From assembly GCA_937944405.1 (NCBI GenBank), contig CALDYR010000042.1, positions 3,107-67,106 on the forward strand: a DNA stretch of 64,000 bases. The letters run 5' to 3'. The notes beneath the pieces are model-generated. The model had not been told where the DNA came from. It saw only the letters and a program-made list of their open reading frames with translations, and searched no databases. Position 1 is the stretch's first letter. The number at the start of each line of letters is the position of its first letter. The stretch comes from an uncultured Pirellulaceae bacterium. GTDB taxonomy: Bacteria; Planctomycetota; Planctomycetia; Pirellulales; Pirellulaceae. The position numbers and the translations under genes were made by a program. Shown piece by piece: positions 3,337-22,500 of the stretch.

Positions 3337-6300
3337 TCAGCGCCCATCGGATTGAACCCGCACGATCGCCAGCACATCTTGATCGTCGGATTTACCAGAA
3401 TCAAGTGTGACTGCGCTGCCCCCAGAAACAGTTGAAGTCGCTTCTCCAACGATGCTTTCTCCGGTCGCCGGGTCAAACCATGTTACGGAGTATTGGCCTT
3501 GGGCCGAAGTCAAATCTAATTGTGTTGAACCTGCGTGGGGCAAATAAACTAAATAAACATCACCGGATTTCGCTAAACAGTATTTTTTATTGGAGAACTT
3601 TGGGTTGCCCACCAACTCATCTGCAGGTGCCATGTCCTGTAAGGGGATGTCGTTATTGGCGAAAAAATCCAAACAGATCCGGCAGTAATCCCAACTCTGA
3701 TCGCGCGAGCGCCAATCTTCGCACCTCAAATCGTTTTCAGCAAATTTATACCCAAAGTAGTATTCCACTCCCGCGCCGCCCCCCATCACGTTGCCCCATA
3801 AGGTTTGTCTGCGAACGCGATGTTGATCGTAGATGTACTGCCCCGTGTCATCTCTACCATCAAATCCAGCATAACCAAGATCAGGACATTGCCCGTGTCC
3901 GGCAGATCCTGATTCGTCAAACGCGACGACCCAAGGTCTACCTGCCGCCTCCGACGCTCGCACCCATTTAACGGTCTGCCAATGCGTATCTTTGATGTGG
4001 CTGTTCTGCAAAGAGACGCCGGTTAGTTCTGATTTATCACCGATCAAGCGGTTGTAAATTTTATCTTGCTGGCCGGGATAGGTGTGCAGCACGACGTGGT
4101 GATCGTAAGGATCGGTTTGGCTGATATAGTGGCTCATGTCGATTTGTTGCCGCGTTGATTGTGTGTTCTCTTCTCCAAGATTCCAGTTCAGGGCCAGATT
4201 ATGACCGAACCGAGCCACCATTTCTCGCAGATACAGTTTTCGTTGCACTCCAAGATTCCCCCCGTCAAGCGAAGTCGGCGTCCAAGCCTTTTTTTTCTTA
4301 TGCCCGCCACGATGGTCATCGTTTTCCGTTTCTTGTAGTTTGAAATGCAGGTACATCCCTTGGGCTGTGCCATGGTCAAACACTATGCCCCACTGATCAA
4401 GCTTACTGCAGTCGTAGTGAAGTTTGTCATCGCGTTGTACAAACGGCCAAACGTTATCACCATCGCCGCCGGCGTTGTACGTCAAGAACGAAAACGCATT
4501 ACAGCCCTTGCCGGACAAATAATTCACCGCACCGATCAAACCTTTTCCTTTGCCATCTTTCCACGTAGGGTCACCAACCTGCCAGTCGCGAAGATGCCGG
4601 GTGAACGTTTTCAGCGGGACGTTCTCCTTCCGGGCGCTCGTACCGTCGAAATCAGCATAGCCCAATAAAGTCTCCGGCGCATCGGCACCGGCTTTTAAAA
4701 AGTACTTCCCCGATCCAACATGTTGCAGGTAACGTTTGCCGACATACTTCAACCGCCCGGCGCTGCGAAAGTCGCTTGCTGGTTTGTCTGAGGCATCGAC
4801 GACCAATTGGCCGCGGGTCTCAAACATCGGTTCGACAGCAGCCTCAGCGTCAATCGCCGCTTGCTTTCCTTTGACGATCGAGGCGGTGAATGTCCACAAA
4901 CCGGTGCGGTCAGGTGCAAAATTAGTCCGCCACTGCGTCCCGGAATTTGCCGACGATTGAGCCGCATTGCCGTCGGCGGCAAAATAGCCGGGCACAACAT
5001 AAGTTGTGCCATCACTGTGCGTGAATTTTGTCTCCATGCGAATGTCGATAAACGGATTGGGATCGTTATCGTGTTCATGAGCGAATGGACCGTTCATGGT
5101 CAAACTGATTTTGTGCCATTGCCTCAATTCCCCCGTTACGCGTACCGTTCCGTCACCATCAGGTTGACGCGGACCGGTCAGCGGTCGTTGGCTGACCGGA
5201 TGGGTTGGACTGGTGGTGAAGTCTCGGTCCGAGTTTTGCGCGCCTGCTTTTTTCGATTTCACATTTTCAGGTTTCACATTTTCAGGTTTCACAGACTTCT
5301 TAGCCGCAGCACCGGTTTGAGCACGCACAAATTCGGCCCACTGGGTTCGAGTTGCATCATCAGCAGGCTTAAACGCGAGTGCTTCCCACCGAGCGCGGCT
5401 GTACTCTTGACCGTCGGTCGAAGCGATCGTCGATTTCACGATTACCGTTTCGTGGTCTTTGATGTTCAAAGATTTCCACTGGCGGTGATACTTTTCTCCC
5501 GTTTCAAACGTGTTGGTAGACAACGGGCAAGTGTAGGTGTCCAGTTTCAGATCACCGATGGTCACATTAAACGTTGACGCCCCATCGTTTTCGCCGACCG
5601 TCTGCAACACCACGTCATAAACTCCTGCTGGAATCGGCAAAACAATCGTTGCGGCGGCCGATTGGTGTTTATCTGGATCGATTGCGAGCCACTTTTTTTG
5701 ATCAACGTAGTAATTCGATGCGCTGATGGAAAATTTAGTCGCTCTGATTACCATGCCATCGGCGGTTAACGCGGCTGTTTTTTTCTTGCGTGTTTTCTTT
5801 GCCTTAGCCGGAGCTGAAACCGCAGGAACTGCGACCAATGGAAACTTGGGGAGGTCCGAAGCGTTACTGGTCGAAACGGGGCCCGCGTCCAAGGGGCGGT
5901 GAAAGTCGCGGTCACGGGTCATCAACCACTTATCAAATTCGAATCCGTCTTCGCGCATCGAGAAATGAATCGTATGAATACCTTCGGTCGGGACGTCTAA
6001 GAAGATTTTATGGGGCTCGCCGCAATGGACTCTTCCGGTGCGTTGTTTGCTTTCCCACCACCATTGCTGTTTGCCTTCACACCACTGTAGTCGCTGCCCG
6101 CTCTCAGGCCACGATCCATCGATTCCCACATGCAGGCCGTTGTCTTCGCTGTTGCTGGAATAGGCGCGCACCCACACAAAGTATCGGCCGGGAGTGGAAA
6201 AATTTACCTTATAAGAGACGACCGCGGCTTTGCCGGGTTGATTAGTAAAGTTTCTTCCCGGTCGCAGTTCTTCCCCGTGGTTTCGGCGGGTGTCAGGTAA

Positions 6301-6921: not shown

Positions 6922-7956
6922 ATGCCGCTCGCTTCTCCCCCCACGGACTGGGTGCGCGCTGTTCGCGCCACGTTAAAAGATGCCGATCAGGATTTCCACC
7001 AAGTCAAACCGCTAATCTACTGGCGGGACATGATCACCAGCGGTGTCATCGCTTACGCTTCGGCGGCGGTATTCATTTCGGCCCCCGCGTTTTCGATCTG
7101 GCAGATCGCGGGTTACCTGTTGGCTTCATTTTGGCTGTACCGTGTCGGTTCTCTTGTTCATGAGGTCGCCCATCTTGGTGGCCACGAACAGACGTCGTTT
7201 AAGGTCGCTTGGAATTTGTTAATTGGCATCCCAACGCTGACGCCATCTACGTTTTTCACTGGCCATCATCGCGACCATCACTCGCAAAAATTCTACGGGA
7301 CTCCCGCCGACCCCGAATACGTCGTCAACGTTTGCCAGCGTGGCAGCATCGTCAATCTGGTGCTTTATTTCGCGTTCGTGGCGATCTTTCCACTGATCGT
7401 GTTTCTGCGATTTTTGTTGGCGCCGCTGACGTTTATCACCCCAGGAGTGCGTGAATTTACACTCCGCCGTCTTTCCGCGCTCACGTTTAACTACCAGTAT
7501 CAGCGTTCTATCAGTACCATCCATCGAAAACGATTTGCGTGGCTGGAACTGGCGTGCTGTGCCCGCGCGATGTTGATTCCTCTGGTGATCGTGGTCGGCA
7601 TTCGTCCTTGGACGCACATGTTGATGTTGTATTCTTTAGGAGCGACGGTGGTAATTTTAAACCAATTACGTCAACTGGCGGACCATCACTTCGAAGGCGA
7701 CGGCAACCGGTTGAGTGTGTCGGATCACATCATGGATTCATGCAACTACGTGGGCCGCGACCCGTTGACTTGGCTGTTCTTTCCATTTGCGATTCAGTAT
7801 CACGCGCTGCATCACATGTTCCCTTCGTTGCCCTATCACAATTTAGGGTTCGCTCATCACTATTTGATGAAAGAACTGCCCATCGATTCCCCTTACCGTG
7901 ACCTCGTCCAACCGGGGTGGTGGTCGGTGGCCGTGAAGATGTTGCGGCGGGGTTAG
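6922..7956 (+). CDS. Membrane fatty acid desaturase family protein
   Basis: Three His boxes (HEVAH, HHRDHH, QYHALHH) with intervening transmembrane segments. Confidence 0.9.
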   Translation: MPLASPPTDWVRAVRATLKDADQDFHQVKPLIYWRDMITSGVIAYASAAVFISAPAFSIWQIAGYLLASFWLYRVGSLVHEVAHLGGHEQTSFKVAWNLLIGIPTLTPSTFFTGHHRDHHSQKFYGTPADPEYVVNVCQRGSIVNLVLYFAFVAIFPLIVFLRFLLAPLTFITPGVREFTLRRLSALTFNYQYQRSISTIHRKRFAWLELACCARAMLIPLVIVVGIRPWTHMLMLYSLGATVVILNQLRQLADHHFEGDGNRLSVSDHIMDSCNYVGRDPLTWLFFPFAIQYHALHHMFPSLPYHNLGFAHHYLMKELPIDSPYRDLVQPGWWSVAVKMLRRG

Positions 7957-7985: not shown

Positions 7986-10211
7986 CTAGATTGACACGAT
8001 CAGTTGATACATTTCGTCCGTCGTGGTTGCCGCCAGTAAACGCTCGCGACGCGATTCCGATCCAACCAATCGCGCAATGTAAGAAAGATGTTCGAGATGG
8101 GCCTTAGGGTCTCTTGTTGGGCTTAACAGCAAAAACACGATCTCCACCGGTCGATCAGTCAATGGGCACATCAGGGATTCCCTAGAACGGGTCACCATCA
8201 ATACAGATCGTTTGATGTGGGGCGACCAATAATGCGGCATCGCAATCCCGTGCCCCAGCAGACTGGAGTACTCCTGTTCGCGTTTCCAAATATCGGCCAA
8301 CGTTGATTCGGGATCAATACTATAAGATTGGCGTTTTAAATGAATCAGCATCTCGCGATACAGTTCCACCAGTTCCGCTTGGTTGGACTGGGTAACATTG
8401 AATGGAATCAACGGCAGCGCACATTGATGTTGACCGCGCCGCAAATCATAAACCAGCGACTGGTCCCCGGCGTTATACGTCTCCTGTTCACCTAGCAACA
8501 AACCGACATCTGGACGCACCGTTAGCAAAACATGCGATTGGTCCGCGTTGTTTTCAGACAACATTGCCCCTCCCGCGTTTGGGTGGTCGTTAGTTTGAAA
8601 TTGTCGCGTCGAAAGCGGAGGCAATTCGCAGTCTGGCTGCATCCATCGGCTTAATGGTATTTCGCCCCAAACCGCTTTGCCAACTAAGAGATGCCGGTTT
8701 TCATCTGATTCGTACCCCGTTTTCTCCCACCGATAGAGCGATTTGGGATTGAGCATTTCGGCCCAACGTTGACAAACGATGCGATTCAAATCCTGATTGG
8801 TCGTGATTGCCAATAGGTTTCCACACGAGTAGAGTTCGGCGTGATTGTCTGGATTCATTAGGGTCGCGTCTTGATGGATTGCCACCAACCCCTCTCGACG
8901 TGCGCCCCTGACCTCACGCGGGTTGGTATCCACCAACACCACATCCAAATTCTGCCGGGTGAGAAAATCGGCAATACTCCTACCCATCGCGTGGGCCCCG
9001 ACGATGATCCATCCTTGGGGGGCTGGCCGGACCACCCCCAGATACCGACCGACCACGCCGGCGGTCAGTCCCTGCACCAAAACCGTTCCCGCGATGACCG
9101 AATAAGTAAAGGTCTCCAAAAATTGAGCTTGCGTGGAATCGCGATGGGACAACTCCAGCGCAAACACAGACGCCATCGACGCCGCCACAATTCCGCGCGG
9201 CGCGATCCAACTGAGAAACAGTTTCTCTTTTACCGTGACGGGGCTGAACATCAACGACAGAAACACATTCAATGGCCTAACGATTAACATCAGGGCAATG
9301 ACAACCAGTGCCAGTTTCCACCCGAAAGCCACAAACGAGTACAGATCAAGATTTGCCGCCAGTAAAATAAACAACAGCCCGATCAAGAAATCTTTTAGCT
9401 CAACCTTATAGCTGACAATGTCGCGCAAATGCACTGACGTCTGGCTTCCCAAGACCAGCCCAGCCACCGTCACGCTCAACAAACCGCATTCCGCGATCAC
9501 AAGATCGGCGATCGCAAAGTTCAACATGGCCATGGCCAAGACGAATATGTTGGTGTGTCCTTTGTCGATCCAGTTTCGCTTTAGTATCCAGTGTAACGTA
9601 TAACCGAACACGATCCCAACAATCGCGCCGGCGGTGAACCTAAGCAAAAAATCTAGGACCGGCGATTCATGACCGCTGCCGGTGCTGACGTAAAACTCGT
9701 AGCTCAACAATGCGATGAACACACCGATCGGGTCAATCAGCACGCCCTCCCAGTGCAGAATATGGTGTAAATTTTTGGTCACGTTAATTCGATGCAGCAG
9801 CGGCCCGATTACCGTCGGGCCGGTCACAATCACCAAACTTGCCGCCAAAAAACAAAACGGCCAATCAAAATCAAAGATCAACTTTAATAACGCCGTAGTT
9901 CCCAGCCACGTCACCAAAACGCCGACCGTTAGGATGCTTAGAATCTCGCGTCCGACGCTACGGTAGCCCTTTAGATCGAGTGTCAATCCGCCTTCAAAGA
10001 GGATGATTCCGACCGCTAACGAGATAATCGTCCCCAGCCCGTCGCCCAGTACATCGGGCTTCACCCAGCCCAAGACCTGCGGTCCGACCAGCACACCACC
10101 GAGCAGCAACACCACAATCGCTGAGGTGCGAAAATGAGCCGCCAGCGTCGTCAGCCCTACGCCCACCGCCGCCGCGATCGTAAACGTCGTTAAAATTTCT
10201 TGACCGTGCAT
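7986..10211 (-). CDS. Cation/H+ antiporter (CPA1/NhaP-like) fused to RCK/TrkA-N and PTS EIIA domains
   Basis: About 12 TM helices with LFEGGL, VTGPTV, WEGVLIDPIG and PRGIVAAS; Rossmann WIIVGAHAMG; C-terminal HGIAMPHY..IVFLLLSP..HLEHLSYIARL (EIIA phospho-His motif). Confidence 0.88.
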   Translation of the reverse strand: MHGQEILTTFTIAAAVGVGLTTLAAHFRTSAIVVLLLGGVLVGPQVLGWVKPDVLGDGLGTIISLAVGIILFEGGLTLDLKGYRSVGREILSILTVGVLVTWLGTTALLKLIFDFDWPFCFLAASLVIVTGPTVIGPLLHRINVTKNLHHILHWEGVLIDPIGVFIALLSYEFYVSTGSGHESPVLDFLLRFTAGAIVGIVFGYTLHWILKRNWIDKGHTNIFVLAMAMLNFAIADLVIAECGLLSVTVAGLVLGSQTSVHLRDIVSYKVELKDFLIGLLFILLAANLDLYSFVAFGWKLALVVIALMLIVRPLNVFLSLMFSPVTVKEKLFLSWIAPRGIVAASMASVFALELSHRDSTQAQFLETFTYSVIAGTVLVQGLTAGVVGRYLGVVRPAPQGWIIVGAHAMGRSIADFLTRQNLDVVLVDTNPREVRGARREGLVAIHQDATLMNPDNHAELYSCGNLLAITTNQDLNRIVCQRWAEMLNPKSLYRWEKTGYESDENRHLLVGKAVWGEIPLSRWMQPDCELPPLSTRQFQTNDHPNAGGAMLSENNADQSHVLLTVRPDVGLLLGEQETYNAGDQSLVYDLRRGQHQCALPLIPFNVTQSNQAELVELYREMLIHLKRQSYSIDPESTLADIWKREQEYSSLLGHGIAMPHYWSPHIKRSVLMVTRSRESLMCPLTDRPVEIVFLLLSPTRDPKAHLEHLSYIARLVGSESRRERLLAATTTDEMYQLIVSI

Positions 10212-10377
10212 CGCGGACCTTGCCGTTTATCGCCAACCTTTGTGGATCACTAATGATGCGGTTATTGTAAGGGCGATGTATCGGTGTCCAAAAGTAGTCG
10301 CCGATCAATTTTATGATTCCGTTTTGGTGAAAATGGCGAAACGATCGGCAAGGATCCTCGACACCACGCAGCGACGT

Positions 10378-11574
10378 TCATCCCTTTTTCAAAACCGTAC
10401 GCAATCGCCGCACCACCCTTTGGGTTAACGGAAGCATTTGGACCGCTTGGCGGGCGATGCCGGGACGTAAACTCAATATCGCGTTTTGAAACGCAAGTCG
10501 CTGTCCCCAGATTCGGTTGATCGATGAACTGCTATTGGCAGTGCATGAATCTCCCGTTTTGACTCCATCTCGATGCAGATAGTCCAAGTTTTTCGCCTCT
10601 ACCTGCGTTCCAGGTGAATACGCTGAAAACTGGTCGTCGTAGGCCGTTTTATAAGAGCACACGTAATCTCCTGAGCGAATATCGGAGATCATCGCGATAC
10701 GACGTCCATCGAGCATCAAACTTAAAAACCTTACCTTTCCAGCGGCAGCACTTTCGCTGATAAGGCTTCGGTAAAACGCGCGCGTGTCGTCGGCACACCC
10801 CAAGGCGGTTCCTGACTCCCCCTTCCAACCGGAGGCTTCAATGGCCATGAAGTCTTCGGCAAGCTGTTGAAAGTCACTGTTTTCATCGGTTGATTCCCAA
10901 GTCACTTCTCCCTGACCGCTCAGTCGCCGCAATAATCGGCGAAGCTTCTTCTGCAGGCTTTTAGAAACGTTATTTTGAAGGTATAGCTCCGACGACGGTT
11001 CTGCCACAAACGCGGCGCGTTGAAAATGATCGCGCTGAAATCGAAGGATGTTCCGTTGCTGCTCAACGGTCTTCAAAACAGAATCGAATTGTGGTTCGGC
11101 GACGACGGTGTCAAGGCTGAGGATGGCGTACTGCGATTCCAGCAAGGCCTCGCAAATCTTCGCCCAAGCGGCAACTCCATGCGTTTTACACAACAAAGGC
11201 GTTGCATCAAAACACTGGTCGTGCTTCCAGACTTCGGCTGTTTTAAACGGTAATCGAAAGACGCTTTTGGTTTCAATGGGGACAACCGCAACCAAGTTTT
11301 TCTCGGGTGCTGCGGCTACATTTTCAACCACCAACAACCGTACTGAATCGTTTCCTAGGTGCTCCAATGCGGGGATCAAATAGTTCGGTTCCAAAGCAAC
11401 GTTTCGCCACAGCGGTGAATCCGCCAGACGGTTCCAAGCAGGTTCAAGGGATCGGAGTTCGGCGTTATCAACCCATCTGCTTTTGAACTCTGGAGTTACA
11501 TCGGTCTGCTCAGGTGCGTTAACAACTACAGGGAATTCAGCCACAAAAGGACTTGCAAGATTCGCTTCGTACAT
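10378..11574 (-). CDS. GNAT-family (CelD/BcsL, Acetyltransf_6-like) protein
   Basis: KKLRRLLRRL..WKG..G..LMLDGRRIA..YKTAYDDQFSAYSPG pattern. ATG at 11574 is preferred over the ORF start at 11706. Confidence 0.8.
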   Translation of the reverse strand: MYEANLASPFVAEFPVVVNAPEQTDVTPEFKSRWVDNAELRSLEPAWNRLADSPLWRNVALEPNYLIPALEHLGNDSVRLLVVENVAAAPEKNLVAVVPIETKSVFRLPFKTAEVWKHDQCFDATPLLCKTHGVAAWAKICEALLESQYAILSLDTVVAEPQFDSVLKTVEQQRNILRFQRDHFQRAAFVAEPSSELYLQNNVSKSLQKKLRRLLRRLSGQGEVTWESTDENSDFQQLAEDFMAIEASGWKGESGTALGCADDTRAFYRSLISESAAAGKVRFLSLMLDGRRIAMISDIRSGDYVCSYKTAYDDQFSAYSPGTQVEAKNLDYLHRDGVKTGDSCTANSSSSINRIWGQRLAFQNAILSLRPGIARQAVQMLPLTQRVVRRLRTVLKKG

Positions 11575-11955
11575 TTGCCCAATTTTCTCTCTGCGACTCG
11601 TTCTATTAACCAACTCGGTACGGAGATATCGAAGAGCCTTAACAAATAAAAATAGATAAAAGGTCCAACAAGGGACTCTGCAAATTTCCGAGTTGCCAGA
11701 GACCAAGTTTATTCAATCAAAACTAGGTTAAGATTTACGGACAAAAGGTAACATCTGCGGCCAAAGCTGGATTTTTCTCTTTTTCCCACCCCCACGCATT
11801 GAGACAAAGCTGAAAATTTCTCTGTGAGTAAACCCGAACCGCACGTTTTGGCAGAAAATTCGTGGTTTCAATCGACATCGGAATTCGATAATAGTAGAAG
11901 AACCTCCATTGGTACAAACCTGTCCGTTACCCTCCGTTTAACCCGCAGAACTGTG

Positions 11956-13056
11956 ATGACCGATTATCGAAAAAGTTTGCTAAAAATTGCGATAGGGCTA
12001 GGAACTGCTATAGGAATGGCCGTTGGTTTCAACGCTCGCGCGTTAGCGTTTCAATCAGGAAGCAGTAACGGCGCTTCGGCGGCCGGTTCTGGAAGCCGAA
12101 GCGCCGCGGAGATCTTAGCGGCACCTTCGTGGGAAATACCGCAGCCATCTTTTTCGTCACCTCAAGCTGATTGGATCAGCCCACACGAAATCTCGGTTCC
12201 ACAACCAAGTTCGCCGGCTGGACAAACAGGCGCTGTTTCCCAAAGTACGTCCCCTGGCATCCCCGAATCGGCGTTGGTCGATCCGGTGTTCGCGATTAGT
12301 GACCCCATGTCCATTGATGCCATTGATCACTCGCCATGGAATTGTTTTCTGGCACGGTACTTGATTACCGACAGTTTCGGAGTCAATCGCTTGCAATATC
12401 AGCGCGTCTCGCAAGCCGATCGCGCCGCGCTCAAAACTTACTTGAATCACCTTCAAGCCATCGACACGCGTACCCTAAACCGCGACCAGCAATTGGCATT
12501 TTGGTTTAACCTTTATAACGCGCGGACCGCCGATGTGGTTTTGGATAACTACCCCATTCGTTCGGTGCGGCAAATCAAGACGAAGCTTACCGATTTCGTT
12601 GGCCCCTTCGACGACCCGGCTGCGGTGACGGTACTGGGCATCGCGCTTTCGCTGAACCAAATTGAAAGCGGAATCGTACGGCCGGTTTGGAAAGACCCAC
12701 GCATCCATTACGCGCTGAATTGTGCTTCGCTTGGCTGCCCTAATTTATCGCCAACCGCGTGGACGGCGGAGCTGATTGAAGGGCGCCTTAACGCTGCAGC
12801 GTACGCTTATATTAACTCCGATCGTGGGTTGCAATACGGTTCACGGGGCGTTCGCACATCGAAAATATTTAAATGGTATAAAAACGACTTCGGTGGCACC
12901 GACGCAGCACTGCTGAATCACTTTCGGCAGTATGCAAGCCCAACCACTTTGGAAAAGCTCCGATGCCAGCAAAAAATCAGTGGCCATTTTTACGATTGGT
13001 CGCTCAACGACGCGCGGATCACTCGACGCCGTTTACTGGAACCCATCATCCGCTAA
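11956..13056 (+). CDS. Secreted DUF547 domain protein
   Basis: Signal peptide, Ser/Pro-rich linker, then QQLAFWFNLYNA..DPRIHYALNCASLGCPNL..SKIFKWYKNDFG. ATG 11956 is preferred over ORF start 11824. Confidence 0.85.
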   Translation: MTDYRKSLLKIAIGLGTAIGMAVGFNARALAFQSGSSNGASAAGSGSRSAAEILAAPSWEIPQPSFSSPQADWISPHEISVPQPSSPAGQTGAVSQSTSPGIPESALVDPVFAISDPMSIDAIDHSPWNCFLARYLITDSFGVNRLQYQRVSQADRAALKTYLNHLQAIDTRTLNRDQQLAFWFNLYNARTADVVLDNYPIRSVRQIKTKLTDFVGPFDDPAAVTVLGIALSLNQIESGIVRPVWKDPRIHYALNCASLGCPNLSPTAWTAELIEGRLNAAAYAYINSDRGLQYGSRGVRTSKIFKWYKNDFGGTDAALLNHFRQYASPTTLEKLRCQQKISGHFYDWSLNDARITRRRLLEPIIR

Positions 13057-13104
13057 ATGGGACGCGATTGGCGCCGATGACTACTCAAACCTCTCCCCTT
13101 CAGT

Positions 13105-14589
13105 TTGACAAACATGACGCAACTTCCTATCTACAAACCGCCGGTGGTTGATGATTTCGCCAGCATGTCGTCCGAAGTAACAGGTGACACCAACGACAGC
13201 GCGTTGGTCGATTACGGTGTAGGACAGTTTATCAAATCCACGACCAGCATTTGCCCTGTCTGTTTGGTGAAAGTCGACGCGTCCGTTTACGAGCGTCACG
13301 GCGCGGTCTACATGGACAAACAGTGCCAACAGCACGGACGCTACTCAGCGATGCTGGCCTCGGAACGTCGGCACTATTACGTCGCCGATCCTGAAATAGA
13401 ATCGGTGGCATGTTGCTGCGGACCCAACCAGCACTGTGGCGATCAAGTCGCAAACCATAGCTGCAACATGTTGTTAGAGATCACGCAAAGTTGCAATTTG
13501 ACGTGTCCAACGTGTTACGCCGGGTCTTCTCCACAAAACAAATCGTTCATGTCAATCGAAACATTTACGCAAACGTTGGACGGTTTGCTGGAAAAAGGGA
13601 AGGGGGATGCTGACCTGATTCAGCTTTCCGGCGGCGAACCAACGATTCACCCCGATTTTTTCGAGATCCTTGAAATAGCATTGAATAAAGGCGTTAAACA
13701 GGTCTACATCAACACCAACGCGATCAAACTGTCGCGCCGCGCGTTTGCTCAACGGGTGGCCAGTTTCGGTGATCGCGTTTCGGTCTATTTGCAGTTTGAC
13801 GGTTTCAAAGCGTCGACTTATGAAAGCTTAAGAGGTCGATCGGATTTATTAGAAACCAAAACCCGCGCCGCTGACTACTGTGAAGAATTTGGAATCAACA
13901 CCGTTCCAACGATGACGCTGACGCGCGAAATTAATGACGACGAAGTCGGTAAGTTTATCGATTGGGCCTCAGGACGCCCCCGGAGCGTTCGAAAAATAAT
14001 GATTCAACCTGCCATGTATTCCGGACGTTACGACAACCCGCGTTTAATCGAACGCATGACCGTCGCGGACGTGGTGAATAAAATATGTGCGCAAACCGGC
14101 GGAACCTTCACCCCAGAGGACTTTACACCGATCCCCTGTTCGGACCCCAACTGTTTTAGTCTTGGCGTTGCGGTGCGTGGGAAATCCGGACTGATGCCGA
14201 TTTCTCGTTACCTGCCGCGTTATGAAGATTGGGCCGCACCAGCCAATCGTCAGATGATCGCGGCCGTTTCAGACACCTTTGATAGTGCAAGTTCGTTCAC
14301 CGACATGATGGGCAAGGTCGTTGCGAGTGATGCGTTGACAAATCTTGATGACGCCGCGCTCGATGCGTTGTTAGATTTGGTCGAAGAACTTTCGGTAGAA
14401 AACTCCGCCAGCCACGATCCACAAAACTGGAACGGTATGTTTGCCATCGGCATCAAACCATTCATGGATGCTTACTCCTACGATCAGGATCGAATCGACA
14501 AATGCTGCGTGCATATTATTGCGGCCGACGGCACACCGGTTTCATTTTGCCAATACAACGCAATCAACCGACCAACAGGCAACCTTTAG
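13105..14589 (+). CDS. Radical SAM protein of the Tes/GDGT-MAS (MJ0619-like) family
   Basis: N-terminal TTSICPVC-x20-CQQHG metal site, CNLTCPTC radical SAM motif, SGGEPTIHP, PIPCSDPNC, and C-terminal FMDAYSYDQDRIDKCCVH..SFCQYN. Start may be ATG 13114. Confidence 0.85.
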   Translation: MTNMTQLPIYKPPVVDDFASMSSEVTGDTNDSALVDYGVGQFIKSTTSICPVCLVKVDASVYERHGAVYMDKQCQQHGRYSAMLASERRHYYVADPEIESVACCCGPNQHCGDQVANHSCNMLLEITQSCNLTCPTCYAGSSPQNKSFMSIETFTQTLDGLLEKGKGDADLIQLSGGEPTIHPDFFEILEIALNKGVKQVYINTNAIKLSRRAFAQRVASFGDRVSVYLQFDGFKASTYESLRGRSDLLETKTRAADYCEEFGINTVPTMTLTREINDDEVGKFIDWASGRPRSVRKIMIQPAMYSGRYDNPRLIERMTVADVVNKICAQTGGTFTPEDFTPIPCSDPNCFSLGVAVRGKSGLMPISRYLPRYEDWAAPANRQMIAAVSDTFDSASSFTDMMGKVVASDALTNLDDAALDALLDLVEELSVENSASHDPQNWNGMFAIGIKPFMDAYSYDQDRIDKCCVHIIAADGTPVSFCQYNAINRPTGNL

Positions 14590-14666
14590 TCGGTCTGGTC
14601 TGCCGCGTTTGCCGCAGATGATTCTTGTGAAATAGACCTTTCAACGCGCGAAGAAAACGAAGAATT

Positions 14667-15626
14667 ATGGCCAATTCAAACCCACCATCGGATTCTCTGG
14701 ACGCCGACAACGACGCCAACCCGGCAATGTGCTGTGCTAACTTTTACGAACAAGACATCGTCCAAGAACTGATGGGCGGAAGCTTCCACCCCGGTGGTGT
14801 TGATCTCTCGACGCGACTGGTGGAAAGCTTGTCCCTGCCTGCAGGCAGCAAGGTGCTTGATGTTGCCTGCGGAGTTGGAACCACCACCCGGCTGATGGCC
14901 GAAAAATTTGGATTGGTGGCAACGGGGTTGGACTACAGTTCGATTAACGTGCAAAAAGCAAAGTCTGCAGTCGCAACACAGCAACCGGCGGAAAATCCTG
15001 CCACCGAAGCACAGCCCTGCTGTGCTTCGGGTGAAGCGTGCTGCAGTGCCGACGAGGACGAACCATTGGCCAATCTCAATCGTTCTCTTACCGATTCTAA
15101 AAGCTTGACGCCGATCCACGGGGCCCCAACGTTTGTCCAAGGGTCGGCTGACGCGCTAGCGATGGACGCGGAATCTTTGGAGGGCGTGACTTGCGAGTGC
15201 GCGGTCAGCACCTTTGCCGATCAAGCCAAAGTTGCCAAAGAGTTCTTCCGTGTATTGAAACCCGGTGGGGTTTTCGGCATGACCGACATGGTCGTCGACG
15301 GGCAGCTACCGGATGATTTTGCCGAAAAAGCGGCACCATGGACGTGCGTTGCGCAGGCGTTGTCGATCAAAGGTTATCAAACACTGTTCGCGCAGGCTGG
15401 TTTTGAGATCCTCCACCACCAAGACCACTCTCATACGCTGGTGGAACTGGCGAGGGAGATGAAACGGAAACTGGTGATGGCTGGCATGGGACAGGCCCTC
15501 GGAGCGTTACCGGCTCTTGGGATGGATTTAAAGGAGATGCGCGCCATGCTCAATCAGTCAACCGAGCTGGTAAAATCCCAAACAATCCAGTACGCGCTGT
15601 TGGTGTTCCGAAAGCCACGAGGATAA
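14667..15626 (+). CDS. Class I SAM-dependent methyltransferase, ArsM-like, Cys-rich
   Basis: SFHPGG, VLDVACGVG (motif I), RVLKPGG; Cys in TCECAVS and PWTCVAQAL; CC pairs at the N-terminus and in an internal insertion. Confidence 0.85.
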   Translation: MANSNPPSDSLDADNDANPAMCCANFYEQDIVQELMGGSFHPGGVDLSTRLVESLSLPAGSKVLDVACGVGTTTRLMAEKFGLVATGLDYSSINVQKAKSAVATQQPAENPATEAQPCCASGEACCSADEDEPLANLNRSLTDSKSLTPIHGAPTFVQGSADALAMDAESLEGVTCECAVSTFADQAKVAKEFFRVLKPGGVFGMTDMVVDGQLPDDFAEKAAPWTCVAQALSIKGYQTLFAQAGFEILHHQDHSHTLVELAREMKRKLVMAGMGQALGALPALGMDLKEMRAMLNQSTELVKSQTIQYALLVFRKPRG

Positions 15627-15630
15627 TCCG

Positions 15631-17964
15631 TTGGATCGGCCAGTCGTATTTTGGCGCGAGAAGATCTTACTGCTTCTGTGGGTGCTGACGTTTCCGCCAG
15701 TGTTGTACATCTCTACACTACCCCCGCAACGGTTTCGCAGTGAAATCACCGAATGGGGCGACCGAGAATCAGTCGTATATTCTCAGTTCTCCGCATACCG
15801 TGAAAAATTTGGCCCCAATGAAGTGGTCATTCTCAGTTGGCCACAGTGCGATCTGTTTGACAGCCGCGTCGAAAAGGTTTGTACAAAAATCGAATCCCAA
15901 TGTGGTCATCTGGTTCGCGATGTTTCCAGTGGACAGAAAGCTTATCGGCTTCTCCGCCGGTATTCGGGGTTGAGTCCAGCCGATGCGGTGGAGCGTTTGA
16001 GAAATGTGTTCATTAGCGCATCGGGAGACGCAACGGCCGTTAGTTTTCACCTCACAGAGGCTGGACGTCTTGACCGCGGCGGCGTTCTTTCGCGTCTGGA
16101 TCAAATTTTAAAGTCCGAGAAAATTGATCCCCAATTGACCACCTATGCCGGGCTGGGGCACAATTTACATACGTTAAACCAAGAAGGCCTTGAGTCGCCT
16201 TTTCGGGTGGTCCCACAAATTATGCTGTTGGCGTTTGTACTGACCGTTGTGTTGGTGCGCAGCTTCTGGCTGGCTTTCTTCATCAATGCACTGGGGGCGT
16301 ATACGGGGTGTTTGTCCTTTAACATCGTCTGGTTGGCCGATGTTGATATGAACGCGATTATTTGGCCGTTGCCAACGTTGACGATGCTGTTGACGGTGTC
16401 TGCAGCAATGCACTTTCTTAGCTACTACCGGAAATCGGCGGAATCACACCAACCGACCGCAGCCAATGTTTCTCCCGGAGAGGGCCTAAACGACCTAGCG
16501 CTGCGAGCACACCGCCGCACGATCGCCAGATCCGCATTGCGGGCTTCTGCGAAACCGATTTTTTGCTGCACGCTGACGACATCCATCGGGCTGTTATCGC
16601 TGCTCCTGAGTAGCAGCGCACCGGTGCAGCAGTTCGGAATGTTTGGCGCGTTATCGATCGCTGCAGCCAACGTGCTGTTATTGGTTTGGTTCCCTCCATT
16701 TTTGACGGTGATTGGACACGCCGATCGGATTGAAAAACATATCGACAGTCAAAGTCCCTCCCAGAATCCCCATCCACTTCCCCCCCATTTACCCGACCGT
16801 TGGTGGCATTGGACAAGATTCACTCGCAATTACTGTCGGCTGATTTTCGCGGCGTGCCTGATATTACTTTTCACCGTCGCTTGGGGGATACCCAAAATCA
16901 CAACCGGCAGCGCGCTGAGCAATTTTTTTCCCGCTGGCCATCGAGTGCTTGATTCGGTGAGGAAGATGCAAACGCGCGTTGGACCTTTGAACGCTGTCGA
17001 ACTCTTGCTGACCTTCGATAATGTGAATCGGCATAACGATCGCACTAGAATTCGCGGGCTGCAAGTTTTGATGCATCACATTGAATCAACAACGGCATTT
17101 GAGTCGTGTACTTCAGCCGGAACTTTTGCTCCCCAGTTAGACCGGCATCCACAAGGCGTACGAAAAGCGATCCAGGATTCTCGTTTAAAACGTTTCAAAG
17201 AAGAAATCCACGGAAGCCTGTTACACAAAGACACTCATAATCGCCAAGAAACGTGGCGGGTTTCCTGCCGTTACTCCATTTTCAAAAACATTGATTTAAC
17301 CAAGCAAACTGAACAACTCAAACAGATCGTGGACACGGTATTCGCGCCCAACGGTCGATTGCTTTTTCCCGAAGAATCGCTAACGGTAACCACAACGGGC
17401 GAGTTTCTTCTGTTTGATGTTGTCGATCAACAGTTTTTATCGGAGCTACTGTGGGCTTACCTGACAGCCTTTCTCGCGATTGCCGTCGTCGTGTTGATCT
17501 TGCTGAAAAGCCTCAAAGCGGCGTTGATCGCGTTGCTGCCAAACCTATTTCCGGCGGTGGTAGTACTGGGCGGGGCAGGGTTATTAGGATATCCGCTTGA
17601 CGTTGCTTCGCTGATGACCGCGAGCGTCGCGTTGGGCATCGCGGTAGACGATACGATCCATTTTTTGTTATGGCATCAGGAAGTAGACCGGTCAAATCTA
17701 ACACAGCGGGAAACGATTGATCCGATCGATTCGGCGATGCGTTATTGCGGCCAAGCGATGATCCAAACCAGTCTGGTTATTGGCATCAGTATTTCGTTGT
17801 ACGCATTTTGTGGTTTTCTTCCGACTGTCAGATTCGGCATTTTGTTATCCGCGATGATGCTGGCCGCATTAATCGGTGACCTGTTGCTACTTCCTGCGTT
17901 GATGGCGATCTTTGGATCGCGTGAAGGCGACACCGCGCGACATGAAAGCGCTGATCAGCGTTAG
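15631..17964 (+). CDS. MMPL/RND-superfamily transporter
   Basis: Two repeats of TM1, a periplasmic loop and 5 TMs; GIAVDDTIHFL motif in the second half; starts 4 nt after the methyltransferase stop. Confidence 0.88.
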   Translation: MDRPVVFWREKILLLLWVLTFPPVLYISTLPPQRFRSEITEWGDRESVVYSQFSAYREKFGPNEVVILSWPQCDLFDSRVEKVCTKIESQCGHLVRDVSSGQKAYRLLRRYSGLSPADAVERLRNVFISASGDATAVSFHLTEAGRLDRGGVLSRLDQILKSEKIDPQLTTYAGLGHNLHTLNQEGLESPFRVVPQIMLLAFVLTVVLVRSFWLAFFINALGAYTGCLSFNIVWLADVDMNAIIWPLPTLTMLLTVSAAMHFLSYYRKSAESHQPTAANVSPGEGLNDLALRAHRRTIARSALRASAKPIFCCTLTTSIGLLSLLLSSSAPVQQFGMFGALSIAAANVLLLVWFPPFLTVIGHADRIEKHIDSQSPSQNPHPLPPHLPDRWWHWTRFTRNYCRLIFAACLILLFTVAWGIPKITTGSALSNFFPAGHRVLDSVRKMQTRVGPLNAVELLLTFDNVNRHNDRTRIRGLQVLMHHIESTTAFESCTSAGTFAPQLDRHPQGVRKAIQDSRLKRFKEEIHGSLLHKDTHNRQETWRVSCRYSIFKNIDLTKQTEQLKQIVDTVFAPNGRLLFPEESLTVTTTGEFLLFDVVDQQFLSELLWAYLTAFLAIAVVVLILLKSLKAALIALLPNLFPAVVVLGGAGLLGYPLDVASLMTASVALGIAVDDTIHFLLWHQEVDRSNLTQRETIDPIDSAMRYCGQAMIQTSLVIGISISLYAFCGFLPTVRFGILLSAMMLAALIGDLLLLPALMAIFGSREGDTARHESADQR

Positions 17965-18045
17965 CCAAAAGTATTTCATTGCACGCTTGATGCCCCGCGT
18001 TCAATCGCCGCCTCAGACGGATCGATACCCCCGCAACTACCGTTT

Positions 18046-19365
18046 TTACGGCAGGCTTGTGGGGATATGTTCAAGCTGTTGGGCGTAAAGAATCTTAAGG
18101 TCTTGGTAGCTGAGCCCGAACGAATCTTTCAAGCTTTCTTCCCCCGATTTTCCTTCTTTGATGCTTCGAAAGAAAGCACGAAACTGTCCGCCTTTGTCCC
18201 GTCGCAGCAGAATTTCCACCAAGGTTGAAGCCGAACCGTAGTAGTCAAATTCAATGCGCGGGGCCGTTAAAAAATCGCCCCACGTCCCGCTTTTTTTGAT
18301 CAGATTGGCCGACTTAATTTGCTTGCGTGGGACCGCATCGTTTTTCATGATGGCGTTGGCAATCCAATCTGACATGCCTTCGTTCAACCAAGACGGCGCT
18401 TGTGCACTTGATAAGTAACGATGGACAAATCCATGAGCCGTTTCGTGGATCAACACCGTTCCAAAATAGGTATCCGATTCCCCACGGTAGCCAGCAAACA
18501 GAACGCCACCATTGCTGGATTGGTGGCACAGCCCTGCGGTACCTTGGGCGGCTTCGTTATCCATGATAGCGGATTCAAATTCATAAAAATCCGACTTACG
18601 GCTGAACGCAAACACGAGACACTTTCCCACCCAAATGTTTTTGGTCGGCGGAATCCCAAACGCCACGCAAAGTTCACGGTACATCGTGTCCAAGGACACC
18701 AGATACCCATCGACTTGGGTGGACGTGAGGTCGGTGCAAACCGTGAAGAACTCAGTTTCAACAACACGAAAATCGAGTTTCGGAAAATGTGACTTTGTCT
18801 TTTCGATCTTCTCTTTCTGTCTGGTAAGCTGCCGTTTCGATGCTTCTGGGGTGACCGGTTGCCAGAGTCGATCGCGCGTCTTCTTTAATCGCGCGATGAC
18901 CTCATCGCGGTGTTTTAGCCGTTGCTTGCGTTTCTCTGGGCTGTGAATAAGTCCGCGTTGTTTTTTGTCAAATTCAACGTCTAAATGCTGGTCATCCAAG
19001 ATGATTTCGTCGATCTTGTTGGCGTTGATCTTGCGTTGTTTTCGCTCTTGTTTGAATTGGACTTTGATGTACTTCAATGTGCCGGGAGTAGTGCCTTCGA
19101 CGACTTGCGTAACTTTAAGAGGCCATTGCGCCGACCCATCGGTATAAACCACCTCCACGACCTTGTCTTGCAGCGCTAATAAGTCCGGCGGAGAATCCGT
19201 AGTCGAGGCACCCGTCTGGGCTGACACACTGACACACAAGACACTGACAGACAAAACATTGACACACAAAACAGTAAAACACAGCGCCAGAAAACGCAGG
19301 CGGTTCGATGCCAACACAGCAACGCAAAGAATCGATCCGTGGCACGGCATGGTCAACAAATCCAA
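18046..19365 (-). CDS. Secreted protein with a zincin/gluzincin-like metallopeptidase domain (DUF1570/peptidase MA-like)
   Basis: Signal-like N-terminus; VLIHETAHGF followed by SWLNEGMSDW (HExxH plus downstream E). Start uncertain. Confidence 0.7.
   Translation of the reverse strand: MDLLTMPCHGSILCVAVLASNRLRFLALCFTVLCVNVLSVSVLCVSVSAQTGASTTDSPPDLLALQDKVVEVVYTDGSAQWPLKVTQVVEGTTPGTLKYIKVQFKQERKQRKINANKIDEIILDDQHLDVEFDKKQRGLIHSPEKRKQRLKHRDEVIARLKKTRDRLWQPVTPEASKRQLTRQKEKIEKTKSHFPKLDFRVVETEFFTVCTDLTSTQVDGYLVSLDTMYRELCVAFGIPPTKNIWVGKCLVFAFSRKSDFYEFESAIMDNEAAQGTAGLCHQSSNGGVLFAGYRGESDTYFGTVLIHETAHGFVHRYLSSAQAPSWLNEGMSDWIANAIMKNDAVPRKQIKSANLIKKSGTWGDFLTAPRIEFDYYGSASTLVEILLRRDKGGQFRAFFRSIKEGKSGEESLKDSFGLSYQDLKILYAQQLEHIPTSLP
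19228..19272. repeat. Imperfect 15-bp tandem repeat x3 (VLxVx in a signal peptide)
   Basis: ACTGACACACAAGAC / ACTGACAGACAAAAC / ATTGACACACAAAAC. Confidence 0.75.
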
Positions 19366-19543
19366 AAACGGAAGCAGGAAAGGTTAAGCAGAGTTTTGAT
19401 GGTAATCAACTTTCGCGCCTTTTGAAACGGCGCTCCGATATCCTTGGGGCTAGGTTTCACAAACCGGTGCGCCACACGGTGTGTTAAGTTAGCTCCAAAA
19501 AGCATAAAATCACACGAAACCGGATCCTAATGCTCCTTTTACT

Positions 19544-22500
19544 TTGCCCACGATTGCTCCCGTGAAATCTAACGTACGATTTGCATTGACGCTGGCCTTC
19601 ATTTGCGTCAACGGGTTTCTATATCAAATCAGCTATTCTCTGGCGCAACCACAACCGCAATTCGATCGTGGCCAAGGGTTCCAAACGGTGCCGCGTAGAA
19701 TCGCAGAAAGCGACCAGAATCAAGACAATAATCAGAACAAAAATCAAGGTCAGCAGCAGGCCTTGGAAACTGTTCCAGAATTTGACACCGCCGCCCCATC
19801 CCAGCAGGCACCATCGGCCCGGGATCAACCCGTGTTCGCGCCCGATTCTCAGCCACTTTCGGCGCTCAACGGTTCGGCTGAAACAGTAACCTTGCGTTCT
19901 ATCGATGGCGAATTAGAAAAGGTCAACGCGTTACCTGATGCCGAAGCGCCGGAGATCGTTGAAATCAAGTCGCTGTATCAGAAAGCGAAGCTTCAAATCA
20001 CAGAGGCAAACGAGCTAAACCGCGCATTGGCTCAATTCAAAAATACGATCAGAACAGCGCCCGCCCAATTAACCCAAGCTCAAGCGGAACTTAACTCCAA
20101 CAGCAGCGCACCGAAGCTTCCCTTTAGCGCTGAAACGTCTGTAAAGCAGTTGCCCAATCTGAAGGATCTTAAAGCGCTCAAACTTGAAAAAGAGATTCAA
20201 CTCCAGTCGATTTCCAAACGCATCGACGCGCTCGCGCCGACCCAACAGCAGACACGGGCAACGGAAATTCAAAGGGAAATTTCCAGTGCGACCCAATTAA
20301 GGAAGGAGACAGAACTTCAATTAAAGACGCCGCCAACGAGTGAAAATGAATTCTTCGTGCGGGCGCGGCGGACGCAATTATTGGCCGAAAACGAGATGTT
20401 GCGGTTAAAAATTGAAACACTGGAGGCGGAAGCGGGCTCCTACGAAGCGACTTCAGGGCTGCCAGCAATCCAATTGGAGTTAAACCGAAAATGGGAGGTC
20501 CAACTTACCAAAGAGATTGCCATCATTGACGCCGCGATACACCGCCGCCGCCAAGACGAAATCGACGCCCTCAATTCGATGGCGATCAAAACAAAACGGG
20601 ACGTGATTCAACCGTTAAAAAAGATGGCAGAAGACAACATCCGATTAACGGTAGCGTTACGAAAACTGGCCAAGGACATCGACGACTTCGCTCAACAGTC
20701 GGCAACCATTAACGCGGAAACGGCGCGCATCGTGCGAGAACAAACGACAACCGAATCGCGTATCCGCGTTGTTGGATTAAGCGATTCCTTTGGTCGCATG
20801 TTGCAACGCAACCGAAATCATTTAATTGCTGCCGAACAACAACAAAAACCAATCAACGAGTTAAACCGAGACATTTCGGATTCCCAGATCGCGATATTCC
20901 GTTGGGAAGACGAACTGGAACTCATTCGTGACATCGAATCATCTGCCAACGAGATCTCCCAAACGCTCCACCGACAAGGGGAGCTGGGTTCTAATGGCCC
21001 TCCCACTCTGGACGACGCACTGGCCGCCGCACGTGACGGCGCCACCCTGCTTTTGCAACGCAGAACCGCGATTTTAGGCGAACTGAAAAAACTTGAATAC
21101 CAACGTTTTCAAGAACTCGTTGGAATGAAAACGGCGCGAGTCGAACTTGAAAACGCCAGCGCGATTTACGCTGAACTGATCGATGAAAACATCCTCTGGG
21201 TGCGTAACGCACCCAGCATGAGCGTATTCGACATCAACGATATCGTCGGTGCTTCGTTGCGGTTGGCCGCACCTGCCAAATGGCATTCGGTGTTGAAGAA
21301 TCTGCGCGATTCTTTTATCAACAATTTTCCGATTTCAATCCTGATCGTGATGTGCTCTGGGACGCTGTTCCTGTTTAGGCATCGCATGCTCAAGGAGCTC
21401 GACCGCACTGGCGACCGCGCCGTGAAACGTGGGTGTCGAACGTTTGGCATTACCGTTTCCGCGTTTGTCCAAACGGTAATGTTGGCGGTCACCAAACTTT
21501 CCCCAATGCTTGCTTTAGGATGGTTATTGGCGCGCAACACGATGGGTTCTGATTTCAGCACAAGCTTAGGATGGGCGCTTGTAGGCACATTTTTGATTAT
21601 CCTGCCATTGGAATTGCTTAACCAGTCCTGTCGCAAAAAGGGGTTAGTACACTGCCACTTCGATTGGACCGAAAAACTAAGGGTCTTATTGAGACGGAAC
21701 TTTGGTTGGATGCTTCCGGTGATTATCCCACTTTTAGTTGTGTTGTTACTGTTGCCGATGTTGGGTAGTGAAACCGCTAACGGCACACCACAGTTCAATG
21801 CATCGGCGATGGCAAATCTTATCAGCGGAGGACAACTGGATTCAGGACTCAGCGATCCCCATCCCAGGAACGCCGTCGATGCGCTGCAAGGTGGTTTTGC
21901 CAATTCCGAATCTTGGAACCGCTTGGGACGGGTATTACTGTTGGTGCTGTTAGTGATTACCGCCATTTTCTCCGCCAGCATCTTTCACCCCCAAGGCGCA
22001 CTGTACGCCGATCGCGAGCTGCCGATTCCACAAAACACCCCTAAGACCAAACTGCGCTACTTCGGCTACAGCGTCATGATCGCGGTGCCTCTGGTATTAG
22101 CTGCAATCGCGGCGGTCGGTTATTACTACACTTCGATCCGAATCTGCGAAAGTTTGTTGAAAACAATCGCGTTGGCGATCGCGGTGATCATCTTATATTC
22201 TGGAGCGATGCGGTTCCTGTTAGTCCGGCGGCGCAATTTGCGTTACGAACAGTTACTGCACCAACGCACACAATCCCGGCTTACGGCGGAACAGAAAGAT
22301 CTCGCGGCAATCACCGGTACGGCCAGTGAGCTGATCGAAATTGATTTGCAAAATGAACCGGGATTGGACATCACCGACGTTTCACGTCAGGCGCGCGAAT
22401 TGACGGCGGTGATCTTTCTATTGATCGCAGGCGGCATCCTACTAAGCATCTGGCAGTATGTCCTGCCAGCGACCAAGATCATGGATGACGTTCAACTCTG

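Follow-up and report, generated by a model that had tools for sequence, protein, structure and literature searches.

Archaeal tetraether synthase (Tes, also known as GDGT-MAS) has homologues in bacteria, and a gene of this kind in an uncultured Pirellulaceae bacterium raises the question of whether such an enzyme couples lipid tails or performs another radical reaction. The gene lies in a 64,000 nt stretch of DNA (assembly GCA_937944405.1, contig CALDYR010000042.1, positions 3,107 to 67,106 of the forward strand; hereafter the window, in whose own numbering coordinates are given), and its open reading frame (ORF) at 13105–14589 had been read in a first-pass annotation, made from the letters alone, as a Tes-type radical S-adenosylmethionine (SAM) enzyme. 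No function is known for the bacterial Tes homologues (PMC9433317, PMC8941075), in line with that annotation, and they have been put forward as enzymes of branched glycerol dialkyl glycerol tetraether (brGDGT) synthesis (PMC8941075). They figure in arguments on the sources of the brGDGTs that serve as palaeoclimate biomarkers. The analysis reported here indicates that the window's radical SAM enzyme and a cysteine-rich methyltransferase encoded downstream of it form an obligate two-enzyme module.

The radical SAM enzyme has the Tes fold and belongs to a distinct subfamily

The ORF is intact and encodes 494 aa when counted from its TTG codon; an ATG three codons further on, at 13114, yields the 491-aa form entered in the protein database and is likely the true start. 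All motif strings quoted at first pass are present in the ORF, namely TTSICPVC (residues 46–53), CQQHG (74–78), ACCCGPNQHC (102–111), CNLTCPTC (130–137), PIPCSDPNC (342–350), FMDAY (453–457), DRIDKCCVH (462–470) and SFCQYN (480–485). They are not there by chance, because the protein matches the Pfam families Zn_ribbon_HMPTM (E = 9e-17) and Radical_SAM (E = 2e-18), and its residues 32–489 match PDB 7TOL, the GDGT-MAS MJ0619, with E = 2.8e-55, the sole full-length match among solved structures (~26% identity to MJ0619). An AlphaFold2 model built with 50 homologues reached a mean predicted local distance difference test score (pLDDT) of 83 and a predicted template modelling score (pTM) of 0.86, with residues 1–29 and 112–117 poorly defined, and contained the four domains of the Tes fold (rubredoxin, N-cluster, radical SAM core and C-cluster). 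Searching with this model in Foldseek ranked 7TOL and 7TOM first, with E = 8e-34 and a template modelling (TM) score of 0.71 over the whole chain (~500 columns), and limited every other match to the radical SAM core, with TM scores of 0.38 or lower. The claim of homology to Tes therefore holds over the full length and in the same fold.

Membership of the curated families was assessed by score and by phylogeny. The NCBIfam models for TrsS (NF045646) and Tes (NF045702) gave 265 bits against a cut-off of 490 (true TrsS proteins score 541–646 bits) and 222.5 bits against a cut-off of 450, respectively. In an exhaustive search of a library of 50%-identity representatives, scores were 513 and 417 bits inside the clade of the enzyme and dropped to 266 outside it. 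Two concordant trees, built by FastTree with 174 rows and by IQ-TREE under LG+C20 with 87 rows, recovered this clade of marine Planctomycetota and Myxococcota proteins with a support (SH-aLRT, Shimodaira–Hasegawa-like approximate likelihood ratio test) of 99, and placed MJ0619 and its relatives as sister to TrsS (SH-aLRT 95–99), with the window clade elsewhere among proteins whose N-terminal site is of the 'CCG' type. By curated cut-off and by tree, the enzyme is thus a member of neither Tes nor TrsS; within the Tes/GDGT-MAS superfamily, it represents a bacterial subfamily of its own. The distribution of its clade is sparse and uneven, with members in 6 of 251 Pirellulaceae genomes, in two of the four genomes of the window's genus and in 2 of 401 sampled Planctomycetota; the protein database contains more than 120 clusters at 51–100% identity to the enzyme. 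No variation was seen in the catalytic motifs down to an identity of 46%, and all frames are intact.

The N-terminal cluster site is remodelled and the C-terminal cysteines are retained

Alignment with MJ0619 was then read residue by residue. The rubredoxin-like site, C50-x2-C53-x20-C74-x2-H77, has a spacing identical to that of MJ0619 (C9X2C12X20C33X2H36; PMC9433317) and is invariant in every subfamily examined, and the CxxxCxxC motif is invariant in the clade alignment. In the C-terminal cluster region, C350, C467, C468 and C482 correspond to C338, C455, C456 and C470 of MJ0619 and are all invariant in the clade, while C345 is clade-specific. Met439, the labile ligand of Tes, and Tyr459, which in Tes sits 4.2 Å from the substrate carbon, are strictly conserved in 1000 archaeal Tes homologues (PMC9433317); across the whole window clade and its sisters they are replaced, by Lys451 and Ile471 in the window's enzyme, the Tyr459-equivalent position being Ile or Val in the clade. 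The first-pass statement that all metal-site motifs are present is accordingly supported at the rubredoxin-like and radical SAM sites and for the four C-terminal cysteines, and is not supported for Met439, Tyr459 and, as follows, two residues of the N-terminal cluster motif.

The element ACCCG..HC had been described as an extra cluster between the N-terminal site and the radical SAM motif. It falls exactly where Tes has its [Fe4S4]N cluster, so that what it represents is a known site in remodelled form and not an additional one. Of the Tes motif C73-x3-C77-x2-C80-x2-H, C73 aligns with C104 and C77 with C111, C80 is replaced by Gln114 and the His by a gap. Within the clade, C105, H118 and C120 are invariant, C104 and C111 are nearly invariant and C103 is variable. 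The CCC triplet, whose presence in close orthologues the first-pass annotation had proposed to check, fails this check as a triplet and passes it as a CC pair (C104 in 13 and C105 in all 15 of 15 clade representatives); its first cysteine, C103, occurs in only seven of them. The AlphaFold2 confidence at this site is low (blocks 62 and 52).

The methyltransferase is an obligate partner within a mobile four-gene cassette

The four genes DUF547, radical SAM enzyme, methyltransferase and MMPL transporter follow one another on one strand with gaps of 48, 77 and 4 nt. A methyltransferase homologue follows the radical SAM gene in 26 of 26 distinct clade loci in which the contig continues, representing at least two phyla, with a DUF547 gene between the two in five of these loci, and it was not found after the radical SAM gene in ~48 loci of homologues at ≤37% identity. 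The four-gene unit recurs with unrelated flanks in a second genome of the same genus (G858; G and L numbers are our handles for genomes and loci) and is absent from a third (G808), in which only the MscK-DTW synteny remains. The four genes are therefore the unit, to the exclusion of the neighbouring GNAT, Na+/H+ exchanger and 439-aa genes, and the cassette is mobile.

The third partner varies among the clade loci. A class I MerA-like pyridine-nucleotide disulfide oxidoreductase was found in 12 loci and a DUF547 protein in 11; the former carries GGDCLxxGCVPSK (C-x4-C) and does not have the C-terminal Cys pair. DUF547 accompanies the radical SAM enzyme in the window, in L003–L005 and in G858, and in L109 it is fused to a DedA/VTT membrane domain. 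The MMPL gene is confined to the window's subclade, where it also follows the methyltransferase in L003–L005 and G858. Two more distant Tes-like subfamilies at 33–34% identity (L167:563–2690 and L202:677–3893) likewise have a Cys-rich methyltransferase, which indicates that the pairing spans several subfamilies; in L202, the two genes are separated by a DUF547 gene, and the radical SAM frame contains one in-frame TAG.

Vicinal-cysteine peptides recur in both enzymes

The methyltransferase contains a CC pair at residues 22–23, a cysteine-rich insert, CEC at 176–178 and PWTC at 224–227. Among 20 clade methyltransferases (36–67% identity), the N-terminal CCAxFYEQD and the Cys of (C)EC and of PWTC are conserved; the latter two, C178 and C227, are invariant and align pairwise with the As(III)-binding cysteines (SNC, GEC; C174/C224 type) of ArsM 5evj and 8xt7. 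The NCBIfam model that fits the protein best is the TrsS-associated DVU_1556 family (NF045667), at 139.6 bits where the cut-off is 155, with ArsM-type models next; a homologue of this methyltransferase is also carried by true TrsS loci.

Every methyltransferase of the clade bears a short vicinal-Cys peptide, either as an internal insert (PCCASGEACCS in the window, PCCxPGExCC in L003–L005) or as a C-terminal tail (ACCDPSGxCC, CGPGCDC). The same type of peptide occupies the N-terminal site of the radical SAM enzyme, as CCCGPNQHC in the window and CCGPGGC in a Nannocystaceae member. This type, CC-G-P/G-x-x-C, recurs elsewhere, and in other subfamilies it sits in a loop of the radical SAM C-terminal domain. 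In two planctomycete genomes, Tes-like genes with 36% identity to the window's enzyme and an adjoining Lgt-like gene (L200:4001–5356, and L201 on the reverse of 4001–5359) have this loop as ACCAPGES-TGA-GP, in which the one in-frame TGA probably encodes selenocysteine. The DUF547 protein has an N-terminal hydrophobic anchor or signal and a C-x4-C-P motif, NCASLGCP, that is kept in 11 homologues beside clade radical SAM enzymes; no relative of it was found among PDB sequences. Fusions of DUF547 with glutaredoxin exist in plants (PMC13621322). Collectively, the vicinal-Cys peptides, the probable selenocysteine loop and the C-x4-C-P motif of DUF547 speak for thiol chemistry centred on a thiophilic atom, and do not fit simple C–C coupling or C-methylation. 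As for the first-pass suggestion that ACCCG..HC could bind such an atom, the partner methyltransferase and the recurrence of the CC..C(C) peptide lend it circumstantial support, and we regard this site as a putative one.

A proposed route of radical capture and methylation

From the homology, fold, motif conservation, gene linkage and four-gene mobility described above, we infer a mechanism that we prefer tentatively, as a possibility built on sequence and structural models: the cassette may activate a C–H bond of a hydrophobic substrate by radical chemistry, capture the resulting radical on a thiophilic heteroatom, methylate that atom and export the product, and would thus not synthesize tetraether lipids. 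The radical SAM cluster would cleave SAM, and the 5′-deoxyadenosyl radical would take a hydrogen from a lipid-like substrate, at an unactivated carbon, with the substrate seated in a pocket of the Tes type, as the fold suggests. The resulting carbon radical would be caught by a heteroatom X instead of a second lipid tail. X might be a sulfide from the [4Fe-4S] cluster kept at the C-terminal site, comparable to the lipid-S adduct formed on the C-terminal cluster of Tes (PMC9433317), or an S-, Se- or As-type atom held on the vicinal-Cys loops. The active-site Cys pair and the CC motifs would let the methyltransferase bind X, which it would then methylate. Thiol/disulfide turnover might be served by the MerA-like flavoprotein in most relatives and by the membrane-anchored DUF547 protein with its C-x4-C in the window, and the MMPL pump, as gene content suggests, would move the product into or across the envelope. 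A lipid-type substrate is proposed because of the Tes fold, and the membrane or lipid partners, MMPL in the window and the DedA/VTT–DUF547 fusion in L109, count in its favour.

Several observations weigh against this proposal. Most clade loci consist of the radical SAM, methyltransferase and reductase genes only, with no membrane or lipid gene, so that the context does not require a lipid substrate. A profile of the clade methyltransferases scored ~105 bits on PMT and MitM and 54–60 bits on ArsM; the AlphaFold2 model of the window's methyltransferase (pLDDT 81) had AtmM/RebM, SpnF, TleD, PMTs and CMAS as its nearest Foldseek neighbours, and ArsM was not among its top 50 matches. The substrates of these closest relatives are methylated on O, N or C=C, so the cysteine positions might reflect convergence or a structural role. 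Moreover, Lys451 in place of the Met ligand means that the chemistry of the C-terminal cluster may differ from that of Tes.

The Tes-type function assigned at first pass was weighed as a rival, in which the enzyme is a true bacterial membrane-spanning lipid synthase that couples fatty-acyl or alkyl chains tail to tail through C(sp3)–C(sp3) bonds, the methyltransferase adds methyl branches and the MMPL protein flips or exports the bolalipid. The whole-length Tes fold, the kept C-site cysteines, the MMPL exporter in the operon, the lipid or terpenoid C-methyltransferases among the fold neighbours of the methyltransferase (CMAS, TleD and FPP C6-methyltransferase) and the brGDGT role proposed for bacterial Tes homologues (PMC8941075) all agree with it. 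We nevertheless consider it unlikely, given the sub-cut-off score, the position outside the Tes clade and the loss of the [Fe4S4]N motif, Met439 and Tyr459; the active-site Cys, the CC tails and the disulfide-reductase or DUF547 partners would have no role in C–C coupling or C-methylation, the restriction of the cassette to a few Pirellulaceae genomes is unlike a core membrane trait, and most clade loci are without a transporter. A further rival is a desaturase route, the alternative at one time considered for Tes, in which the radical SAM enzyme makes a terminal or sub-terminal olefin and the methyltransferase methylates the C=C bond in the manner of CMAS and TleD to give branched or cyclopropane lipids. 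Olefin-acting enzymes are indeed among the fold neighbours of the methyltransferase, its Pfam CMAS match is present if weak, and a preprint reports radical SAM enzymes of archaea that desaturate or methylate lipids (bioRxiv 10.1101/2025.10.20.683597). The Cys pair, the CC motifs, the possible selenocysteine in related loops and the thiol-redox partners would all be left unexplained, however, and the olefin route is disfavoured for Tes itself (PMC9433317), which makes this route very unlikely in our estimate.

A maturation function without any lipid would have the radical SAM enzyme and the methyltransferase assemble or alter either a small thiol metabolite or a cofactor that contains a metal or chalcogen, with MMPL and DUF547 as lineage-specific add-ons. 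This would suit the nearest NCBIfam models, which are TrsS and the DVU_1556 methyltransferase, the presence at TrsS loci of a Mo-pterin aldehyde oxidoreductase, a MocA-like NTP transferase and a C-GCAxxG-C-C protein, and the core three-gene form of radical SAM enzyme, methyltransferase and flavoprotein, which has no membrane component. On the other hand, no Mo-enzyme or cofactor gene was seen beside the window-clade radical SAM genes in the loci examined, TrsS is sister to archaeal Tes and not to the window clade, and the Ile or Val at the Tyr459-equivalent position still places a hydrophobic residue next to the substrate carbon; such a function is likewise unlikely in our view. Finally, that the adjacency of the genes is meaningless or that the gene is decaying has a next to negligible probability, as the frames are intact, the motifs are invariant over the range given above, the pair occurs in every continuing clade locus and the four genes move together.

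Arsenic as a candidate for the captured atom

Marine arsenic-containing hydrocarbons and fatty acids carry Me2As(O)- on a terminal carbon. The cassette could accordingly be imagined to make organo-metalloid lipids, in which a terminal alkyl radical on a lipid tail would meet As(III) (or Se/Te) on the vicinal-Cys peptides, the methyltransferase would methylate the adduct and MMPL would export it; if this were true, the cassette would supply the missing biosynthetic route to these marine compounds. We judge this version quite unlikely. It can appeal to the ArsM-type Cys positions of the methyltransferase, to the precedent of radical SAM–ArsM pairs for C–As bonds and to locus L109 (GCA_901538445.1, LR594584.1), a complete planctomycete genome in which the cassette lies inside a metal(loid) island at 453–21399. 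This island contains ArsS (452 bits, cut-off 300), TIGR04283 and TIGR04282 arsenosugar glycosyltransferases, an ArsM-like gene and a MerA-like flavoprotein, together with a peroxiredoxin, two Crp/anti-sigma pairs and an MbnB/DUF692 (MNIO)–DUF2063 pair, which we take to be genes of a bufferin-type peptide made on the ribosome and modified post-translationally (RiPP).

Against it, no ars genes were found in the window, and no clade locus other than L109 shows them; in the window's genome, adjacent ArsM-like and ArsS genes of the arsenosugar type lie on another contig (C150:23178–25464). ArsS (TIGR04167) occurs in five of six Pirellulaceae genomes with the radical SAM gene and in 98 of the 245 others (Fisher p = 0.044, without phylogenetic correction), in 12 of the 18 genomes to which we gave handles and in 41% of sampled Pirellulaceae. 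Because ArsS is this common in the family, a link to arsenic by co-occurrence is too weak and was rejected. The identity of the methyltransferase as an ArsM was also ruled out, by cut-off (73.8 bits on ArsM PRK11873 against a cut-off of 263, over the C-terminal half only), by profile and by fold.

Feature coordinates and neighbouring genes

Table 1. Features of the cassette and its surroundings in window coordinates, with Lgt gene examples from other loci in locus coordinates.
Feature	Position	Strand	Basis
DUF547 protein, 410 aa, first cassette gene	11824..13056	+	Pfam PF04784, E = 2e-21
DUF547 N-terminal hydrophobic anchor or signal, residues 52–75	11977..12048	+
DUF547 C-x4-C-P motif NCASLGCP, residues 299–306	12718..12741	+
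Tes-fold multi-cluster radical SAM enzyme	13105..14589	+	PF23545 and PF04055; 7TOL match; AlphaFold2; Foldseek
Rubredoxin-like mononuclear Fe site, C50/C53/C74/H77	13252..13335	+	Aligns with MJ0619 C9/C12/C33/H36
Remodelled N-terminal auxiliary site ACCCGPNQHCGDQVANHSC, residues 102–120	13408..13464	+	Alignment
Radical SAM CxxxCxxC motif, C130/C134/C137	13492..13515	+	Alignment, Pfam
C-terminal auxiliary cluster region	14128..14559	+	Alignment with MJ0619 residues (PMC9433317)
Cysteine-rich class I SAM methyltransferase, 319 aa	14667..15626	+	NCBIfam, Pfam, alignment
Methyltransferase insert PCCASGEACCS, residues 117–127	15015..15047	+
MMPL/RND-superfamily transporter, 777 aa, last cassette gene	15631..17964	+	PF03176; TIGR00921 HAE3; weak HpnN matches
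GNAT	10378..11706	−	Acetyltransf_6, BspF-like, 126 bits
Fatty-acid desaturase	6922..7956	+
Lgt gene examples beside Tes-like radical SAM genes	L047:5187–5942; L033:5135–5977; L019:7594–8346; L136:8350–9138; L129:9565–10287

The GNAT gene is divergent from the cassette and unlinked to it in G858, and its adjacency is probably a coincidence; an Acetyltransf_6/FemAB-like gene was also seen upstream of the Lgt-paired radical SAM gene in L136. The fatty-acid desaturase gene lies ~4 kb upstream of the cassette with opposite-strand genes between, and conserved linkage to the cassette was not seen. A role in anti-phage defence was considered and dropped, PADLOC having returned just generic matches to the radical SAM core and the methyltransferase. 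A promoter and terminator scan of 10200–19600 gave fewer promoter-like sites than shuffled sequences and nothing usable.

Significance

'Bacterial Tes homologue' denotes not one family but several systems with different partners, and the presence of such a gene therefore cannot be read as tetraether capacity. In the window clade, a thiol-rich methyltransferase and thiol-redox proteins replace the usual Lgt-like partner, and one cluster site has been rebuilt as a vicinal-cysteine peptide. If the proposed capture and methylation chemistry is true, it would be a new way to put a methylated heteroatom on an unactivated lipid carbon, and could explain where the organo-sulfur, organo-selenium or organo-arsenic lipids of marine systems come from. 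The small size of the four-gene unit allows it to be tested directly in a heterologous host.

Comparison with known systems

With Tes/GDGT-MAS, the window's enzyme shares the four-domain fold, the C-x2-C-x20-C-x2-H site, the radical SAM motif and the four C-terminal cluster cysteines. It differs in forming a separate clade, in having CC(C)GPxxHC..NHSC in place of the [Fe4S4]N motif, and in its bacterial host and obligate methyltransferase partner, whereas Tes is without one. TrsS resembles it as a radical SAM (seleno)protein of the Tes superfamily whose gene is linked to those of a pyridine-nucleotide disulfide oxidoreductase and of a homologous methyltransferase that bears Cys, with Cys-rich loops in both. 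Unlike the window's enzyme, however, TrsS, the sister group of archaeal Tes, retains both Met439 and the canonical motif GCPxDCGxCxxH, and its loci have another gene order and contain neither DUF547 nor MMPL; their context of Mo aldehyde oxidoreductase, DVU_1555, DVU_1553 CoA ligase and DVU_1551 NTP transferase is in turn absent from the window and the clade loci. In one TrsS locus (L100:816–12498), a molybdopterin aldehyde oxidoreductase, a PNDR/dicluster protein, a DVU_1556 methyltransferase and a DVU_1555 C-GCAxxG-C-C protein are encoded upstream, and a DVU_1553 CoA ligase, a MocA-like DVU_1551 NTP transferase and a CobC-like phosphatase downstream, a content that suggests cofactor maturation.

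The Lgt-paired bacterial Tes homologues belong to the same superfamily with the same domain order (29–37% identity), and differ in having an adjoining Lgt-family (PF01790, prolipoprotein diacylglyceryl transferase-like) membrane gene and no methyltransferase, several of them also without three of the four C-site cysteines. Nearly all the other subfamilies retrieved are of this kind, among them those of Bacteroidota, Cyanobacteriota, Acidobacteriota, Chloroflexota, other Planctomycetota and the majority of metagenomic loci. Among L019–L066 and L117–L196, the Lgt gene stands directly beside the radical SAM gene in 41 of the 48 loci from genomes and in ~55 of the 80 from metagenomes (seven checked by Pfam), and it was not found in any window-clade or TrsS locus examined. 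In enzymes from Bacteroidota, Cyanobacteriota and Acidobacteriota (L020, L033, L036, L047 and L053), the positions of C338, C455 and C470 are changed to A/G, S/T and D/E/S, respectively, and this group, judging by these replacements, is probably without the cluster on which Tes traps the lipid radical. In the papers found by our literature search, TrsS, the DVU_155x genes, DUF547 and Lgt were not linked to Tes homologues.

Radical SAM–ArsM pairs that make C–As bonds are known as ArsS/ArsM (arsenosugar) and ArsL/ArsM (arsinothricin). They share with the cassette the pairing of a radical SAM gene with an adjacent methyltransferase gene whose product has Cys at both As(III)-binding positions of ArsM, and differ in that their radical SAM enzymes are of another family; the window's methyltransferase, for its part, does not reach the ArsM cut-offs and is closer in structure to the RebM, PMT and CMAS types. 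LipA, BioB and MiaB/RimO have unrelated folds and cluster domains, and MiaB/RimO methylate within one polypeptide; what they would share with the cassette is the proposed logic itself, in which a carbon radical is caught by the sulfur of an auxiliary cluster and then methylated.

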